A DNA stretch of 64,000 bases from Candidatus Shapirobacteria bacterium. Lineage in GTDB: Bacteria; Patescibacteriota; Microgenomatia; UBA12405. The translations under genes were made by a program, and so were the position numbers. The notes under the pieces are model-generated. The model did not search any database, was not told where the DNA came from, and saw nothing but the letters and a program-made list of their open reading frames with translations. The first letter of the stretch is position 1, and each line of letters starts with the position of its first letter. This document shows, piece by piece, positions 52,061 to 64,000 of the stretch. Location of the stretch: NCBI GenBank assembly GCA_018062705.1, contig JAGORQ010000003.1:2270-66269 (forward strand), in the 5' to 3' direction.

Positions 52061-52717
52061 TTGCTACACTTAATTGTGTCAGCTTTTATCATTATTTTCC
52101 TACTTACCTCAACAGCTTTGTTTGGCTTCGGCATTTCCCTAACACCACTTGTTAATTTTACCCCTCAGTTAATTGCTCTAGTCGGCATCCTCTTTGTAGT
52201 TTTTTTTAAAAATAAAAAAATCTATCTATACCTCCTCGCTCTACTAACCAACTTGATTATTTTTTCTACCGGCGGACTCAATTCACCTGCCTTTTTTCTC
52301 ACCTATTTTTCCTTATTTTTAATTGCTTTTCAAAATTTACCCTCAGTCACTCTCGGCTATTCACTGGCACTAATTTTACTTTTATCTCAATCGCTCAACT
52401 CACCTCTATCACTGATCCCTCTTTTATCACTTTTACTCATCACTCCACTTGTTTGGTTCACCGGCCATGAATTTCTTCAAAAAATTAAAACTGAAAAAAC
52501 CATTAGCCAGGACGAAACCGACTTCCTCCTTTGGCTCAATTTAAAGTTCAAAACTGGCATCACCACTATTGCCGACCTCGCCTCCCAAGTCGCCTCCGAC
52601 CCATCACTTTCACACTCCCAAAAAGAAAATCTCAAAAAAATTAAAAGTAGCGCCCACAACCTACTCAATTCCGCCACCAAATTATCCGCCGAAATTAGCG
52701 ATCAGGACAATGAATAA
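52061..52717 (+). CDS. hypothetical polytopic membrane protein (TTG start)
   Basis: Five or more hydrophobic helices; 8-bp overlap with next gene. Confidence 0.4.
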   Translation: MLHLIVSAFIIIFLLTSTALFGFGISLTPLVNFTPQLIALVGILFVVFFKNKKIYLYLLALLTNLIIFSTGGLNSPAFFLTYFSLFLIAFQNLPSVTLGYSLALILLLSQSLNSPLSLIPLLSLLLITPLVWFTGHEFLQKIKTEKTISQDETDFLLWLNLKFKTGITTIADLASQVASDPSLSHSQKENLKKIKSSAHNLLNSATKLSAEISDQDNE

Positions 52718-53474
52718 AAAATTATTTTTCGTTTTATTCTTACTTCTTACATCTTACTTCTTAAATCTTAATGCTCCGCCCGCCAGGGCGCAACATTTCA
52801 CCTCTACTAATTACATCATCGATTGGGGTAATTTTAATATCACCTCTGGTTCCAAAACTTCTACCAGCTTTAACCTCACCGACACCGTTGGCCAAAACGC
52901 TCCTGGTGCCAACACCTCCACCAGCTACACTCTTAAATCGGGCTTTCAGTATATTTACGATACTTTTAATCAATTTTCTTTCCAAATCAGCAGTCTTTCC
53001 ATTCCCCTAGGCACCTTGGTGCCCGGTGTCGGCACTTCTGCCACCAACACCCTCACCATTACTACCCCCTCTGGTCATGGTTACGAAATATACGCCCTCG
53101 AAAATCACCCACTAGCCCTACTCTCCTCTGGCACTACCATTCCCGACACGAAGTGCGACTCCAACACCTGCTCCGAGACTAGTTCTGGTGTCTGGACCAG
53201 TTCTTCAGCTTATGGTTTTGGTTTCAACACACTTGGAACTAATAGTAGTGGTGCGATTACCCACGTCGGCACCTCGGGTATTTTTACCGACTCAACTTAT
53301 TATCGTCAGTTTGCCAATATTCTCGCCGGTGAAACACCTCAGGTTATTATGACGGAAAATTCTCCAGTCAAAAATCGCACCGCCCAAGTTACCTACAAAT
53401 CCCTCATCTCCGGCATTCAATCTGCCGGCGTTTACCAAAACGCAATTACTTTTATTGCTATACCTAAATACTAA
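52710..53474 (+). CDS. secreted protein; signal peptide encoded by CTTAAAT-type heptamer repeats; C-terminal domain shared with 54910-56394
   Basis: ATG at 52710 (track ORF extends upstream to 52569); MNKKLFFVLFLLLTSYFLNLNAPPARA signal; C-term IPDTKCDSNTCS..WTSSSAYGFGFN homologous to 54910 protein. Confidence 0.5.
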   Translation: MNKKLFFVLFLLLTSYFLNLNAPPARAQHFTSTNYIIDWGNFNITSGSKTSTSFNLTDTVGQNAPGANTSTSYTLKSGFQYIYDTFNQFSFQISSLSIPLGTLVPGVGTSATNTLTITTPSGHGYEIYALENHPLALLSSGTTIPDTKCDSNTCSETSSGVWTSSSAYGFGFNTLGTNSSGAITHVGTSGIFTDSTYYRQFANILAGETPQVIMTENSPVKNRTAQVTYKSLISGIQSAGVYQNAITFIAIPKY

Positions 53475-56454: not shown

Positions 56455-57471
56455 ATGAAACATATTAGTCAAAATAAAAAAAATATTGGAACTTGGAAAT
56501 TGTTATTTGTATTTTGTTTGGAATTTGTTTTTTGGAATTTGAAATTTACTCAAACGGTCAACGCGCAGAGCGCATTGGGTTTGAGCGCCATTCCTCCCCG
56601 CCTCGAGCTCACAGTCAAACCTGGTGAAGTAGTCACCAAAGAAATTAAAATTAGAAACGAATCAAAGAATGTAAGAAGCATTACAGTATCTGCTCGTGAT
56701 TTTATCGTCACCGACGATGCCGGCACCCCCATTCAAATTGAAGGAGATTCAACCCAAAATCGTTGGGCATCCAGCAATTGGATTAGTGTCTCCCCCTCTT
56801 CTTTTCGCCTTGATCCCGGTGAAACAAAATCATTAATGTTGACTGTCATTGCTCCAGAAGAAGCTCTTCCTGGTGGACACTATGCCATGGTACTTCACAG
56901 TCCCAAAAATGAGGCTGTTTTAAACGACACCGGCTCTGTCATTCAAACCAATGTTGGCACCCTCGTGTACATCACCGTGCCGGGAGATATTACTGAAAAA
57001 GCCCTAGTCAAAGATTTTACCGCCCCCAAATTTTCCGAATATGGACCTGTCGACTTTAAAACCAATATCACCAATTTGTCAGATATTCATATTGCCCCAA
57101 TTGGTAGTGTTGACATCAAAAACCTATTTGGTGGTCGTACCGCTTCGCTCCCTCTATCCAATACCAACATCTTTCCCCAAACCAGTCGCGAGTTCACCAA
57201 CACTCTAGCTCGCAAATGGTTGTTTGGTCGTTACGCCGCCACCCTCAATGCTGGCTATGGCACCACTGGCCAAGCCCTGACTGCCACCATATTCTTCTGG
57301 GTAATTCCCTGGAGACTAATTACTCTCGCTTTAGTAGCCTTAGCGTTAATTGTCACCATCTTTATTCTGGTCCGTCAGCGTCAAACTCCCCCTCCAGAAT
57401 CAACCGACACTCAGGTTGAAGAGCTTGAAAAAGAACTCGCCAAATTAAAACAAAAATATAAAGACCGCTAG
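56455..57471 (+). CDS. cell-surface protein, DUF916/DUF3324-like with C-terminal TM anchor
   Basis: Signal peptide, LELTVKPGEVVTKEIKIRNES... pattern, C-terminal TM + charged tail. Confidence 0.4.
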   Translation: MKHISQNKKNIGTWKLLFVFCLEFVFWNLKFTQTVNAQSALGLSAIPPRLELTVKPGEVVTKEIKIRNESKNVRSITVSARDFIVTDDAGTPIQIEGDSTQNRWASSNWISVSPSSFRLDPGETKSLMLTVIAPEEALPGGHYAMVLHSPKNEAVLNDTGSVIQTNVGTLVYITVPGDITEKALVKDFTAPKFSEYGPVDFKTNITNLSDIHIAPIGSVDIKNLFGGRTASLPLSNTNIFPQTSREFTNTLARKWLFGRYAATLNAGYGTTGQALTATIFFWVIPWRLITLALVALALIVTIFILVRQRQTPPPESTDTQVEELEKELAKLKQKYKDR

Positions 57472-57483
57472 AAAAGTAGATTT

Positions 57484-58293
57484 ATGATTTTCGTCGTCCT
57501 GGTCTTATTCTTAAATCTTAAATCTTACTTCTTAAATCCTTTTCCTCTCCAGGCTATCGCTTCTTCTTCACAGAAATCTGTCGCCATATCCGCCTCTATT
57601 GGCATCAATCGAGTCACCATTCATGGCTACACTTCACCCAACAGTCGAGTCGAATTAAATTCGCCTCGGGTTTTTGCTGTTACTTACAGCAATGATACCG
57701 GAGAGTTTGTCTTTGATAAAACCATACTTCCCAAAAACCCTTCAGATCTTTGCCTGACTTCGATTAATGTGGCCCAAATTCGCACCACTCCAGTGTGTAT
57801 CCCCCCACCTCCATCTACCAACTACCACACCAATATTGGCCCCATATTACTACCTCCTACAGTTGCCCTCGACACCTCGACTATTAAACCAAACAGTACA
57901 GCAATTATTAGTGTTCTAGCCATCCCCAACTCAACAGTAGACATTTATTTCTTTCAAAACTCTCACCACGCCTCAATTTTTCCTTCAGCCCTAGCTTTCT
58001 CTCTCCCCAAAATATCCACCACCACTTCAGCAGACGGCACCTACTCACTTAGTTTACCTACCACTTATTCTAGTGATTATCGAGTTTACGCTAGCGTTTT
58101 TTATCAAGAATTTGCTTCTCCCAAATCAAACACCCTCCTCTACAAACTCCCTTCTCTCTGGTATCTTTTTTGGATAGCCAATCAATATCAAATAATCAGT
58201 TTTATATTTTTAACCTTAATTATCGGTATAATTATCTATTTGATATATTCAAAACAGTATGGACCAAAACCCAGATCAACAGTATCAAAATAG
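57484..58293 (+). CDS. surface protein with heptamer-encoded signal peptide and C-terminal TM anchor
   Basis: MIFVVLVLFLNLKSYFLN signal from CTTAAAT repeats; C-terminal TM. Confidence 0.45.
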   Translation: MIFVVLVLFLNLKSYFLNPFPLQAIASSSQKSVAISASIGINRVTIHGYTSPNSRVELNSPRVFAVTYSNDTGEFVFDKTILPKNPSDLCLTSINVAQIRTTPVCIPPPPSTNYHTNIGPILLPPTVALDTSTIKPNSTAIISVLAIPNSTVDIYFFQNSHHASIFPSALAFSLPKISTTTSADGTYSLSLPTTYSSDYRVYASVFYQEFASPKSNTLLYKLPSLWYLFWIANQYQIISFIFLTLIIGIIIYLIYSKQYGPKPRSTVSK

Positions 58294-58711
58294 ACACAAT
58301 AGTAACAATGGTCTCTACATCCTAATCTTTCTTTTGGTTGCTTTGTTTTTTTCACTTTTATTAGTTTTTCGTACCACAGTCTTCTTTGGTAAAGCCACTT
58401 CATCCAATTCTTCTCCTATTGTCCTTGAAAATTCATACCTTTTCGCCTCACCACTCCAAGCGCTTGCCGACAATCAAGAGCAAATTCGCATCACCGCTTT
58501 TTTGCTAGACGGTCGAGGCCTGGGTGTTGGCAACCAAAAAGTTGACTTGATCTACCCCCAATCACTTCAAATGAACCCTGTTCAACCTTACACTGATGAA
58601 ACTGGTAAGGCTGTGTTTGACCTTCACACTCCAACGACCGGCACCTATTTTATAGAAGCCTCGGTTAACAACAAAAAAATCCCTCAAAAAATAAAGCTAA
58701 TATTTTATTAG
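58259..58711 (+). CDS. membrane-anchored Ig-like (Big-like) domain protein
   Basis: N-terminal TM; ITAFLLDGRGLGVGNQKV...DETGKAVFDL...GTYFIEASV pattern. Confidence 0.4.
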   Translation: MDQNPDQQYQNRHNSNNGLYILIFLLVALFFSLLLVFRTTVFFGKATSSNSSPIVLENSYLFASPLQALADNQEQIRITAFLLDGRGLGVGNQKVDLIYPQSLQMNPVQPYTDETGKAVFDLHTPTTGTYFIEASVNNKKIPQKIKLIFY

Positions 58712-59136
58712 TTTCTAAAAGTAACCCTTACTTCTCTTGCTAATGGAACGCCAGCCACCTGAGCTGTTAATGTAAACTGTCCCTCTACTTTTGATACCAC
58801 CTCAAAAACAACCTTACCTTCACTATTTGTAATCGGCGATTTTGATTTAATACCCTCTATCCCACCCATAGAGACTAGCTTTCCTGGAATACCCTTACCA
58901 CTGGCATCCAGGACAAAAACATTTACCAAACATTTGTCAGTGCCATCAGCCCGGGCTAATATTTTCTCACCCAAAACGTAAGAGCTCTTCACCGACACTG
59001 TTTGAGATGGTGCAGCCTTGGTAAAAGTGACCAAAGTTCGTGGCACCAACACAGTCGCCACATAATATATCAACACCAAACCTGCTACAGCAGAAAATCC
59101 AATCAAATAAGTTTTGGTTGTTGGCTTCATAGCCAA
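58708..59136 (-). CDS. membrane-anchored Ig-like domain protein, paralog of 58259-58711, convergent and overlapping 4 bp
   Basis: VFVLDASGKGIPGKLV...NSEGKVVFEV...GQFTLTAQV. Confidence 0.4.
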   Translation of the reverse strand: MAMKPTTKTYLIGFSAVAGLVLIYYVATVLVPRTLVTFTKAAPSQTVSVKSSYVLGEKILARADGTDKCLVNVFVLDASGKGIPGKLVSMGGIEGIKSKSPITNSEGKVVFEVVSKVEGQFTLTAQVAGVPLAREVRVTFRN

Positions 59137-59769
59137 TCATAGCATATTTCAATTTTGACTGCTAGTGATTTCTACCAACAAATAACCTAGAACTTTCAAC
59201 CAAAACGATCTAAAAATATATTTTCCGAAACTCCGCCTATTCCAGCACCTTTCTAATGTCTTTCTCTCTGAGCAAAAACTATATCAGTCTCAAATCCCTA
59301 ACCACCAACAAAACCAATCGACTAAATGCTCGAACTTAACTGGAAATATTTATCTTAGTTAAAACACCTAATAAACGGGACAGTATACCATCATTTAATA
59401 TCAAACTATCTTTACCGCACATAACCGCACAAATAATTTACCAACTGTCGTCTTAAAATACTAATTAGACTAGTTAACATGAGATTGATAGTAGACAAAG
59501 TGCTCGTGTAAACTAAAGTGAAAAATAACCGCAATACTTTTCGGTAAAATTAGTAAGCTATGTATACTATCAAACTACAACAACTTCTACCTCTTTGTTC
59601 CTGCTTGACACCATTTTCCTAATAGTAGATAGTTAATTAATATATTAATTAATTCAGATAAACATGTATAAACTATCTAATTTTGAATCTAAAAGATTAT
59701 TACCGCTATTTGAACGATTAACTCCGTTCTTAATTATTACCGCCGCCTTCGCTTGGCTCTGGAACTAAC

Positions 59770-60192
59770 ATGCTTCAATCTTTTCGCACCTGGCTTATTT
59801 CCAAAAAATACACCGAGTCAACTGTCAAAAACTATGTCACCGATATCAATCGCTATCTTGATTTTGTTGGTCCCAGCTCGAATGTTGCCCACATTTTTTT
59901 AGACTCAGTATTATCAAACTATTTGTCGCAAATATCCTTCGATATTAACTACCCCCGCTACTTAGCATCTCTTAACCAGTTTTGCCAATTTGGCATTTCT
60001 CAAAACATCATTTCCCAAAACCCTCTCAAAAAAGTTAGACACCAAATTGAAGCCACCCCTCAAACCGACCTAAAACATCTTTTAACCGAATTTTCCCAAT
60101 ATTTAATTAAACACAAAAGTTCTGATTCAACTATAAAAAACTACATCAATGATGTTAACTTATATATCAATTGGCTAAACTCTGAATCTTAA
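59770..60192 (+). CDS. N-terminal segment of giant envelope protein: two phage-integrase SAM-like (core-binding) domains
   Basis: TVKNYVTDINRYLDF and TIKNYINDVNLYINWL repeats; ends at TAA 60190-60192 but downstream +1 frame continues. Confidence 0.55.
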   Translation: MLQSFRTWLISKKYTESTVKNYVTDINRYLDFVGPSSNVAHIFLDSVLSNYLSQISFDINYPRYLASLNQFCQFGISQNIISQNPLKKVRHQIEATPQTDLKHLLTEFSQYLIKHKSSDSTIKNYINDVNLYINWLNSES

Positions 60193-60193
60193 A

Positions 60194-63100
60194 GCAATAT
60201 TTAACCAGTCTAATTTTGAAAAGTACCTTCGTCTAAAACAGACAGAGGGTCTTTCGCTCTCCAGTCTAAAACGGAAACAATCTTCGCTCACATCGTTTCA
60301 AAAATTTTTAGTCAAAAAAGGCTATCTTGATCAAATTTCTCCACTCCAAGTTGATCTTCACAAAACCCCAACTTTATCCTCTTTGCCCACCATCAATCCT
60401 CAACCCGCCAAACAATCTTTCTTGACTGGCTATATCCTTACTGCTTTAGTAGCTTTAATTTTCACTGGATTAGGTTTCGGACTTTATTATCAAACAATTG
60501 TCCGTTCTACCAAAAATCTGGCATTTTCAACTGCCGCCTCCCCTGTCCGTCCCGGGCGTATTCTTTCGTTTCAGGGTCGACTTACTGATTCGGCTGGTAA
60601 CCCTATCACCAGCTCTACCGGGATTGTCTTCAAATTGTTCAACAATAGTATTGGCGGTACTGAACTTTACAACTCAAATATTGGCAACAGTCAAACCGTC
60701 GTCCCCGACACCAATGGTATTTTTTCTGTCGTCATAGGTTCAAGTCATGGCACTGAAATCCCCTCTACAGTCTTCTCTGAAAATCAAAACGTCTACTTAG
60801 AAATTACTGCTGGTGGTGAGACCATGAACCCTCGCCAGCCTATCGCCACTGTCGGTTACGCTCTCAACTCAGAAACTTTGCAAGGCCTGCCTCCTTCTGC
60901 TAGCGGTTTAAAAAACACAGTGATGGTCATCGACGGCTCTGGTAATCTTAATCTAGGTGAAACAAGCCCTTCAATAATTTCCAATTCTGGCACTCTAGGT
61001 ATTGAGGGTCAGGCCATGCTTCTAAAAACTGGCTCCGGATCAGCCGGCAATATTACCATTGCCCCTGATGCTGGTGGCCAACTCAATCTATCTTTTGGTA
61101 GTACCTCACCCAGTAACGGCGGTTTAATCAACATTACCAACGCCAATTTTGCTGCCGGTAACATTATCAACGCTAGTATCAACAATGACAATCGTGGTTA
61201 CAACTTTGTCAGTTTTAATAACTATGACGTCGGCACTACCCAAACCGCCTCTCGCTTTTCCGTCGACTCATACGGTAATACTTCAGTTGGTGGCACATTG
61301 ACTTTGTCAGGCACTGCAGTCGGGGTGGGCACCTCCGCCTTGTTTATCGATGCCTCCACTGGAGCAGTTTCTCGTCGGGTACTCGGATCTATGGCTTTTG
61401 ACTCTGGTACTTACGATAATTATCAGCGCTGGATTGCCAATGTCGGTACCAGCAACACCACTATTAGTTCCGGCACCACTCTCTCTTATGCTGCTGGCGC
61501 CGGTCTATCAATCTCACTTATAGGCAATACTCTTACTTTCACCAATACTAGTACCGGCACCACCTACTCCTTTACCAACGGACTAACAAATAATTCCGGA
61601 ATTGTCGGACTCGGCGGCACTTTTACTCAAAACTCTCAAATTGGTACCAGTAATTTTTCTTTGGCATTCCTCGGTTTGGGAAACAGTCTAGGTCTAGCCC
61701 AAAGCTCGTCAGGAAACGTTGGCATCGGCACTTCCAGCCCCTCCCAAAAATTAGACATCAACGGCTCAGTCAGCATTGGTGGATCACTCGCCATCGGCTC
61801 AACCTTTCTCGTAACTAATCTCAATGCCGATTTATTAGACGGACTAAACTCCTCTTCCTTCCTTTACACCGCTGGTACTGGTATCAGTTTGTCTTCCGGT
61901 AATGTCTTCAGTAACATCGGCGTCACCTCCATTCTTGGCACTGCTAATCAAATCACTGCTTCTAATCCTACAGGTGCAGTTACCCTATCTCTACCACAAA
62001 ACATCGATACTGCTGCCAATGTTCAGTTTGGATCACTCTATCTATCTGCATCAGGTATTGGTCTTTCTACTGCTAGCAATGTATCAGTTGGTGGCACGCT
62101 TATCCTTGCCGGTACACCAGTCGGCACCGGAACCACCATTCTTTATATTAATTCAAACAATGAAGTCACTCGAGGTACCTTTGGTCCTTACGAATCACCA
62201 CTAACTTTTCAAAACGGCCTCACCAGATCTACCAACACTATTTCAATTGGAGGAACTTTAACTCAACATACTCAAATTGGCACAAGTAGTTTCGGATTAT
62301 CGTTTCTCGGTTTGGGCAACAGCATCGGTTTATCCCAATCAAGTTCTGGTTGGGTCGGAATCGGCAATTCTTCACCCAACTATCAACTTGATGTTACTGG
62401 TGATGCTGGTATCGGTGGCAACTTAAATGTAGGTGGCACACTAACTCTAGCTGGCACACCAGTTGGAACTGGTACAACCATTCTCTATCTAAATGCCAGC
62501 AATCAAGTTACCAAAGGTGTCTTTGGTCCTTACGACAATTACCAACGATGGGTATTGTCAAATTCCGGCACCCAAGCAAACATTACTACTGGTGTTACCT
62601 TAGCAATTGGGTCAGGTGGAGGTATCAATACTTCTCTGGTTGGCACTTCACTTACTGTAATTAATACAGGTGTTACCAACATCTTTGGCACTGCCAATCA
62701 GATAACTGCTTCCGGTTCAACTGGGGCCATCACTCTTTCTTTACCCCAAAATATTGACACCGCCGCCTCAGTCCAATTTAGTTCCTTATCTCTATCATCA
62801 ATTGGTACGGGTTTGTCTACCGCCGGCGGTCTCCGCGTCGGTACTTCACTTAGTACAGCTGGTAACTTAACAATTGGCGGTACCCTAAATCTTTCCAACA
62901 CCAATACAGTTGTCTCAACCGGGACTACTGCACTATTAATCGACACTAGTGGCAATATTAGCAAAAGAATGCTTGGCTCCATGGCCTTTGATTCTGGCAC
63001 TTATGACAACTATAACAATTGGGGACTCCGAAATAATAGTGGTGCTACTACACCAGTCACCTCTGGGTTAAGTGTTAACTTTGTTAATGGTGTTGGTATC

Positions 63101-64000
63101 TCAATTTCTCAAATTGGTACCTCTATTTCCTTTGCCAACATTGGTGTCACCTCCATTCTTGGTACAGCTAATCAAATAACCGCTAGTAATCCTACCGGTG
63201 CAGTTACTCTCTCTCTACCTCAAAACATTGATACTGCTGCCAATGTTCAGTTTGGCTCCTTAGCTTTATCATCTGCTGGTATCGGGCTGTCTACTGCTGG
63301 TGCGGTTAGAATTGGAACTTCATTGACGGTTGGCTCCAATTTATCAGTCGGTGGCAGTGTTACCTTATCCTCCCTACCGGTTGGTGTTGGCACCTCAATT
63401 GTTTACATTAACTCTTCAGGAGTCTTGACCCAAGGATTTTTTAACACTGGAGTCGGCACAACTTATGCATTCCAAAACGGCCTGAACGATCCCGGAACTC
63501 ACATCATCGGACTCGGTGGCACCTTAACTCAACACTCCCAGATTGGTACTAGCAACTTCACTCTCTCATTTTTAGGTTTAGGCAATACACTTGGTCTGTC
63601 AATTGGTCCAAGTGGTTTTGTCGGTATTGGCACCTCTTCACCTACCCAAAAACTCGATGTGAATGGCAACGTTGATATTGGAGGTACACTCTTTCTCACC
63701 GCCACCCCTGTTGGTACCGGCACTTCAGCCTTATTTATCGATGCTTCAACTGGAACTGTCTCTCGTCGAGTTCTGGGTACCATGGCCTTTGATTCTGGCA
63801 CTTATGACAATTACAACAATTGGGGTCTCCGAAGTAATAGTGGTGCTACTACACCAGTCACCTCTGGGTTAAGTGTTAACTTTGTTAATGGTGTTGGTAT
63901 CTCAATTTCTCAAATTGGTACCTCTATTTCCTTTGCCAACATTGGTGTCACCTCCATTCTTGGCACTGCTAATCAAATCACTGCTTCTAATCCTACAGGT
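60194..64000 (+). CDS. giant repetitive surface protein (continues beyond window): third SAM-like domain, TM helix, then Gly/Thr/Ser-rich repeats; likely continuous with 59770-60192 via +1 frame break
   Basis: Frame open from stop at 60176-60178 to window end with no stop (more than 1260 codons); encodes FEKYLRLKQTEGLSLSSLKRKQSSLTSFQKFLVKKGYL before any start codon; TM GYILTALVALIFTGLGFGLYY. Confidence 0.6.
63007..63215. repeat. about 200-bp near-identical intragenic repeat (second copy 63803-64000; related copy 61905-62025)
   Basis: Direct comparison shows more than 90 percent identity over about 200 bp. Confidence 0.8.

Follow-up and report, generated by a model that had tools for sequence, protein, structure and literature searches.

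A predicted core-binding domain divided between two adjoining genes of Candidatus Shapirobacteria, with a gene boundary shared by many related species

The window analysed here is a 64,000-nucleotide (nt) stretch of DNA from a metagenome-assembled genome (MAG) of Candidatus Shapirobacteria (GenBank assembly GCA_018062705.1, contig JAGORQ010000003.1, forward-strand positions 2,270 to 66,269), and towards its end it carries two adjoining plus-strand genes, here called A and B, whose common boundary is the subject of this report. Gene A is an open reading frame (ORF) of 140 amino acids (aa) at 59770-60192, ending in a TAA stop codon at 60190-60192, and its product is identical to KBC75_01635, a hypothetical protein of a Ca. 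Shapirobacteria MAG in the NCBI database. The +1 frame is shut by a TAA at 60176-60178 and is then open from 60179 to the end of the window at 64000, a run of 1,274 codons. Both of these frames had been described in an original prediction made from the letters of the DNA, and both were confirmed; it had further taken the two frames to be a single gene requiring a +1 shift, either programmed or caused by a mutation or a sequencing error. Since A stops at 60190 and the B frame is open only from 60179, any change of frame would be confined to 60179-60189; the two frames overlap by only 11 nt, and the stop codon of the 0 frame lies directly at the junction. As read here, gene B extends from 60182 to 64000, where it runs off the window, and encodes more than 1,272 aa: half of a core-binding domain, a transmembrane (TM) helix, an immunoglobulin (Ig)-like domain, and an ectodomain of repeats rich in glycine, serine and threonine.

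The N-terminal part of this pair is built from the core-binding (SAM-like) domain known from tyrosine recombinases. Gene A matches the Pfam family Phage_int_SAM_1 with 36.7 bits (cutoff 22.3), and its first domain (59770-60045, A residues 1-92) is complete by Pfam, by the NCBIfam XerD model, in which A residues 10-92 correspond to the N-terminal model positions 9-94, and by self-alignment. The second domain begins at the 3' end of gene A, where residues 106-138 (60085-60183) cover positions 2-35 of the 83-position Pfam model, corresponding to helices 1-2, while its C-terminal half, helices 3-4, lies at the N-terminus of B (60203-60322), where residues 9-48 of the +1 frame cover positions 44-83. 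When A and B are joined, the two halves give one full Phage_int_SAM_1 domain (positions 2-83 of 83, 54.1 bits, E 1.9e-14), and domain 1 (A 1-92) can be aligned over its whole length to the composite of A 104-140 and B 2-60, at 30% identity (E 1e-13). Because the halves complete one Pfam domain, the break is predicted to lie within the loop between helices 2 and 3 of domain 2. An AlphaFold2 (AF2) model of B residues 1-420 (mean predicted local distance difference test score, pLDDT, 74) places helices at residues 9-21 and 26-45 with pLDDT of about 90. The three SAM-like domains seen in the original prediction are accordingly reduced to two, the claimed third being the C-terminal half of the second, and A with the N-terminus of B is thus best described as two predicted core-binding domains of which the second is split between two polypeptides. 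The four fused homologues that were scanned, all C-terminally partial, each contain two Phage_int_SAM_1 stretches as well.

Of the two parts that make up a tyrosine recombinase, then, the four-helix core-binding domain was found and the C-terminal catalytic domain was not: no PF00589 match appeared in A, the 1,272 aa available for B or the C-terminally partial fused proteins P0001, P0015, P0018 and P0022, at E ≤ 1 or 0.001. The tyrosine recombinases XerC/XerD and the phage integrases (PF02899/PF13495/PF13102) share the N-terminal core-binding domain with A/B, but in A/B these domains are duplicated in tandem and stand ahead of a TM helix on a surface protein, with the second one split, and no catalytic domain was matched.

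The status of the break becomes clear from related loci. The joined N-terminus, used as a search query, found 58 proteins, and for the comparison of DNA we have taken L001, L002 and 80 of the 424 confirmed places of a pattern scan in GTDB species representatives, with one duplicate contig dropped. Parts A and B were placed in each locus by tblastn, which gave totals of 48 split loci (the window included) and 31 fused ones, 79 together. The break falls at one homologous place in all 48 split loci, and the 47 other than the window come from nearly as many different GTDB species-representative genomes. The relation between the two frames is not the same throughout: the offset is +1 in 39 loci, the window among them, and +2 in six, and in the remaining three (L003, L004 and L006) both parts are in the same frame, with an in-frame stop codon followed by an 18-21-nt spacer carrying AGAGGG and then an ATG. 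The 31 contiguous loci, in which A and B form a single ORF, are mostly Collierbacteria-like and more distant (31-37% identical). At the protein level, single chains span the break in P0001, P0015, P0017-19 and P0022, and many of the closest matches, from Shapirobacteria and Woesebacteria, begin exactly at it (P0003 with MNLKSYF..., P0004 with MKLEIIF..., P0010 with ..TLNLTSLF...). A neighbour-joining tree built from part B groups the split loci into a single clade, with the fused locus L005 nested inside it and the fused locus L079 near its base. The search for a contiguous ORF in homologues, suggested at the outset as a check on the single-gene view, therefore gave a divided answer, with contiguous ORFs in the 31 more distant loci and a split in the window and its 47 companions. 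From this distribution, the frame break is most readily understood as a conserved gene boundary that arose by fission of an ancestral gene inside domain 2 and was retained in some 48 related, Shapirobacteria-like species.

A break of this kind could also stem from an indel introduced by sequencing or assembly, or from a recent mutation that turned the gene into a pseudogene in this genome alone, since a one-base change would restore a single long ORF and MAG assemblies do carry indel errors. Such an origin is, however, extremely unlikely. The same break recurs in the 47 other loci; the closest relative of the window, L084, in which A is 66% identical, has the same break together with the same arrangement of CTG and stop codon; and the Logan assembly of SRR11088367 (L083, 4,015 bp) is 100% identical to positions 57937-61951 of the window, although both may derive from the same reads. 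Both parts are moreover under purifying selection, as set out below. An error or a pseudogene can thus be regarded as effectively refuted by the shared break in relatives and by selection.

Two side observations on these loci should be recorded. Gene A is unbroken in all split loci except L019 (3102-3513), where a change of frame (tblastn frame 3, followed by frame 1) occurs between residues 24 and 26, probably through an assembly error or a real lesion. The cassette is specific to the candidate phyla radiation (CPR); the titles of many MAG records that contain it (L009, L012, L014 and numerous further GTDB loci) read 'uncultured Gammaproteobacteria', 'Pseudomonadales', 'Methanoperedens', 'Spirochaetia' or 'Balneolaceae'; these titles look unreliable, or the contigs are mis-binned.

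In close species pairs, the ratio of nonsynonymous to synonymous substitution rates (dN/dS) is 0.04-0.23 for gene A and 0.02-0.07 for the Ig-like part of the ectodomain. For the half-domain at the start of B, eight of the nine close pairs give 0-0.23 and the remaining one, L025/L041, about 0.4. Between the window and L084, the half-domain segment has a proportion of nonsynonymous differences (pN) of 0.156 and of synonymous differences (pS) of 0.653 in the B frame, a ratio of 0.24, and in the other two frames pN exceeds pS and stop codons are present. These values indicate that the half-domain segment is in all probability translated in the lineage of the window, and that neither A nor B is decaying.

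Where B begins is a more delicate matter. In 44 of the 48 split loci an ATG, GTG or TTG stands at one homologous codon, two to three codons before an L[KN]xxF motif. Within a 7-codon window a canonical start occurs in 43 of 48 split loci and in 3 of 31 fused ones, as against some 12% expected by chance from an in-frame background of 1.9% per codon. In most of the +1 and +2 loci this start lies 1-17 nt upstream of the A stop codon, most often at 8, 11 or 14 nt, with L032 as an outlier at 32 nt when the last canonical start is taken. Seven loci, the three in-frame ones included, have it 2-49 nt downstream of the A stop; those named for such a start outside the in-frame group are L011, L013, L033, L036 and L043, less one already counted. 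The overlap can be very tight, of the ATGA type in L048 (start 1 nt before the stop) or as TAATG in L036. A motif like the Shine-Dalgarno (SD) sequence precedes the B start in only 7 of the 48 split loci. A start near or overlapping the A stop, mostly with no SD-like motif, is the signature of coupling by termination and reinitiation, and with purifying selection on both cistrons the pair shows two features of coupled cistrons.

In the window, the homologous codon is CTG (60182-60184), 8 nt upstream of the A stop codon, and CTG is also found there in L020, L025, L041 and L084, the B frame of the last reading TAG ATT CTG AAA CTT AAA at the junction. CTG is a permitted initiator in translation table 11. 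In the sister species L025 and L041 the CTG is preceded 7-9 nt upstream by an SD-like GAGG or AAGG. On the strength of these homologous positions, we infer that the near-cognate CTG at 60182 starts gene B in the window. Several points weigh against this reading of the junction: the window, L084, L020, L025 and L041 are without ATG, GTG or TTG at the start of B; no SD-like motif precedes the CTG at 60182 in the window; and +1 is by far the commonest offset (39 of 48), which could fit shared ancestry or an additional, low-level frameshift product.

The first canonical start in the B frame of the window is the TTG at 60383-60385, which a gene caller chose on the identical Logan contig, and no ATG, GTG or TTG occurs between 60179 and 60383. 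B could in principle start at this TTG, or at the TTG at 60422, in which case 60194-60380 would be a relic that is not translated, and A would be a remnant standing on its own. Yet the half-domain segment runs for 67 codons with no stop codon and is matched by the Pfam model as the C-terminal half of the domain, and all relatives with canonical starts begin B ahead of it. The pN and pS values against L084 show purifying selection in the B frame only, which also speaks against a start at 60383. We consider such a start very unlikely, and the TTG is probably not the true one. Two separate genes with an independent start and ribosome-binding site in relatives, and a segment 60194-60380 without SAM-like character, had been named beforehand as what would speak against the single-gene view; the relatives do show two genes with an independent start, albeit with an SD-like motif in only the seven loci noted, whereas 60203-60322 does score as half of a SAM-like domain.

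Programmed +1 frameshifting at ...GAA UCU UAA A..., yielding an A-B fusion either in all split species or only in the lineages with CTG, is the remaining alternative. The event would resemble that of prfB (CUU-UGA-C) or antizyme (UCC-UGA-U), with a serine codon in the P site, the stop codon in the A site and a U skipped, and the window is locally alike in having a sense codon, a 0-frame stop, a +1 continuation and an overlap of a few codons. The shortness of the 11-nt overlap, the stop placed right at the junction, the +1 offset in 39 of 48 split loci and the five loci with no canonical start can all be cited for it, as can the recurrence of GAATCTTAA, which is shared by the window, L001, L017, L018, L040 and L041. 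This recurrence is, however, accounted for by the beginning of B itself, since B starts with xTG-AAT-CTT-AAx and hence with M-N-L-K/N. Across the 48 split loci there is neither a conserved shift-prone codon nor a constant +1 relation lacking an independent start: the codon before the stop is TCT, CAA, AAC, AAA, ACT, GTT, AGT, GAA, AGC, AAT, CTT or others, the stop itself is TAA, TGA or TAG, and nine loci have an offset of +2 or an in-frame stop with a spacer. The start codon conserved at one homologous position would not be needed by a frameshift gene. In addition, re-pairing on CUU is not possible for the tRNA-Ser bound to UCU, and in L084 the codon at this place is ACU. The local RNA folding at the junction is unremarkable (z = -1.28), and Rfam gave no match within 59100-60500. 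The differences from prfB and antizyme are hence the lack of a conserved shift site, the variable offset and the conserved independent start codon, and a programmed shift seems to us unlikely. The single gene requiring a +1 shift, as first supposed, does not survive the comparison with the 47 other loci, which are broken at the same place with varying offsets and a conserved start codon.

At seven of the split junctions (L003, L004, L006, L014, L025, L028 and L041) we also observed a short insert rich in G (...GGGGCAGAGGGGTTT...). Its form in L003 is partly palindromic (GTCACGTAGTGAC), and the insert supplies the only SD-like motifs seen at the junction. Inserts of a similar kind are found inside P0003, P0004 and P0008, as peptides of the 'RGAVHRTEGF' type in the linker that follows the half-domain, and the insert may be a small mobile or hairpin element.

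Beyond the half-domain, B continues with a single TM helix, which AF2 places at B residues 80-107 (60419-60502), in agreement with the helix first proposed, and its hydrophobic stretch is conserved in homologues. A membrane-proximal beta-sandwich domain of the Ig-like type follows at 60563-60877 (B 128-232), with an invariant RxLSFQGRLTD motif and pLDDT of about 90; a Foldseek search of this domain against the PDB returned only generic Ig-like, macroglobulin and intimin matches, none with E < 1e-3. From the model, B is predicted to have its N-terminus inside and its C-terminus outside the cell. Past the Ig-like domain the protein is a mosaic of repeats with 15% Gly, 14% Ser and 13% Thr. The repeat motifs quoted earlier are present, MAFDSGTYDNY at B residues 404, 934 and 1201 and ILGTANQITAS at 584, 992 and 1259, but the description of near-identical repeats of about 270 aa applies only to the last pair, namely a full 267-aa unit at 62981-63781 and the start of the next at 63782-64000. 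These are 98.6% identical in protein over the 72 aa available and 93% identical in DNA over 233 nt, at a spacing of 801 nt, whereas the earlier modules (61391-62980) are diverged and rearranged, with 45-66% identity to the later copies. Tandem Repeats Finder detected no tandem array in the B repeats. The AF2 model of the 267-aa unit had a pLDDT of 52 and was not used for a fold search, and searches of PHROG, Pfam and PDB sequences found no match for the ectodomain within the 1,272 aa in the window. B varies in length among the other species, with 568 aa as the shortest and more than 1,620 aa as the longest.

The ectodomain of B recalls phage tail-fibre-like proteins with a Peptidase_S74 chaperone domain, being rich in Gly, Ser and Thr and carrying VGIGTSSPxxKLDVNG and LNADLLDG as recurring motifs. 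The repeat unit has few relatives in sequence: of 18, five carry this chaperone domain (PF13884), and UniRef names one more a Peptidase S74 protein. No PF13884 match appears in the 1,272 aa of B in the window, and the C-terminus, the expected place of such a domain, lies beyond it. The ectodomain is likely to take part in surface attachment. An integrase-type module placed N-terminal of a TM helix on a huge repetitive surface protein, the architecture first suggested, is thus supported, with the qualification that it forms one polypeptide in the 31 distant loci.

Upstream of A, the plus strand carries a micro-ORF of 34 aa (59664-59768, MYKLSNFESKRLLPLFERLTPFLIITAAFAWLWN followed by a stop codon) with a polar N-terminus and a hydrophobic C-terminal helix, whose stop lies 1 nt before the ATG of A. 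Homologous micro-ORFs (MYKxYNFEPKSLSP...PFLIIAATFVWLWK and a stop codon) occur directly upstream of A in at least 38 of the 48 split loci by a strict regular expression, and in a few more with variant endings. The distant fused loci have an analogous upstream peptide, MLINDYSQQ...ILTAGIIFVLPVIFLLV..K and a stop codon, again with a C-terminal hydrophobic helix. Between L010 and L013 the micro-ORF differs at 1 of 42 residues, while the dN of A is 0.18.

Further upstream lie two small convergent genes (58259-58711, plus strand; 58708-59136, minus strand), each encoding an N-terminal hydrophobic helix and one Big_1/Invasin_D3 Ig-like domain; the minus-strand gene is syntenic upstream of A/B in L001, L002 and L083. 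Some 7 kb upstream, the ORF 52569-53474 (plus strand) has a sub-threshold match to the C-terminal model of the CPR Pam pilin (NF058581; 17.5 bits, E 0.0033, with the cutoff at 55), and the other neighbours gave no Pam-related hits. Pam pili have been reported in Saccharimonadia and Microgenomatia, and a protein that resembles a tail fibre co-localises with CPR pam operons (Troman et al. 2026, bioRxiv 10.64898/2026.03.03.709456). The A/B cassette may adjoin a Pam-type pilus locus. The product of the ORF 56455-57471 (plus strand) has a signal-like segment at its N-terminus and a hydrophobic helix at its C-terminus, an arrangement given for the PamC/D chaperones in the same preprint (bioRxiv 10.64898/2026.03.03.709456).

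Two further features of the window are noted in passing. The segment 53507-53881 (plus strand) encodes a 124-aa protein that matches the 23S rRNA-intervening-sequence protein or bAvd-like four-helix bundle (PF05635, 124 bits). Proteins of the Avd type are often found alongside diversity-generating retroelements. The GC skew is strongly negative, from -0.13 to -0.45, in every 2-kb bin of the window regardless of gene strand; with no switch of skew, the window lies on one replichore, in a genome of unusually strong strand asymmetry.

Taken together, the arrangement is explained with good probability by a translationally coupled cassette of three cistrons, derived by fission of a fused ancestor, in which A would dock on the tail of B and no frameshift would be required. 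The first cistron would encode the 34-aa hydrophobic micro-protein. The second, A, would give a soluble cytoplasmic protein with one and a half core-binding domains of the tyrosine-recombinase type, and the third, B, a single-pass membrane protein whose first 50 or so residues supply the missing half-domain, followed by the TM helix, the Ig-like domain and a long, repetitive, fibre-like ectodomain. The ancestral A-B polypeptide, still fused in more distant Microgenomates, would have been cut in the loop between helices 2 and 3, and the cut kept in the clade of the window. B would be initiated mainly by ribosomes that terminate on A, a few nt upstream of the A stop codon, giving coupled and roughly equimolar synthesis. 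A would then dock non-covalently on the cytoplasmic tail of B by completing the four-helix domain, and this docking would restore, on the cytoplasmic side of the membrane and below the surface fibre, the two-domain module of the ancestor.

The proposed cassette resembles several known systems in part. Coupled overlapping gene pairs and the products of gene fission likewise start near a stop codon, mostly with no SD sequence, and keep both ORFs conserved; A/B differ from the usual cases in that the cut falls within a small four-helix domain and not between domains, is kept in about 48 species, and involves a putative CTG restart in five lineages. Regulators of the ToxR/CadC type have the same topology, with an N-terminal cytoplasmic domain of the nucleic-acid-binding type, one TM helix and an extracytoplasmic C-terminal part, the orientation of B being a prediction. 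In contrast to ToxR/CadC, the cytoplasmic part of A/B is core-binding and not a winged helix (no OmpR-type winged-helix match was found in A/B, only core-binding, SAM-like families), and the outside consists of more than 1,100 aa of fibre-like repeats and not of a compact sensor. A literature search on integrase SAM-like domains with Patescibacteria or CPR found nothing relevant to this architecture, and a metagenome scan with protein A gave no confirmed relatives.

The cassette is likely to combine surface attachment on the outside with a DNA- or protein-binding module inside the cell. A more specific role for the split domain, as a reversible latch by which A is held at the membrane through B and the micro-protein and is released or re-oriented on contact with a host cell, is speculative and rather improbable. 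If it were true, episymbiotic CPR bacteria would possess a contact-sensing pathway built from recombinase parts, and the module of the fused relatives would be a ToxR-like, membrane-bound DNA binder.

Current annotation labels these genes 'site-specific integrase/XerD, partial' or assigns them a probably wrong internal TTG start, yet A and B are neither recombinases nor pseudogenes, and their family is uncharacterised. The pair is a clear case from nature in which one small helical domain is distributed over two polypeptides and has stayed so in many species, and its putative CTG restart should be useful to gene callers and to studies of reinitiation in CPR bacteria. Because it adjoins Ig-like surface proteins and possibly a Pam-type pilus locus, the cassette of micro-protein, half-domain partner and membrane-anchored giant fibre is a candidate for the host-attachment biology of uncultured Microgenomates episymbionts.

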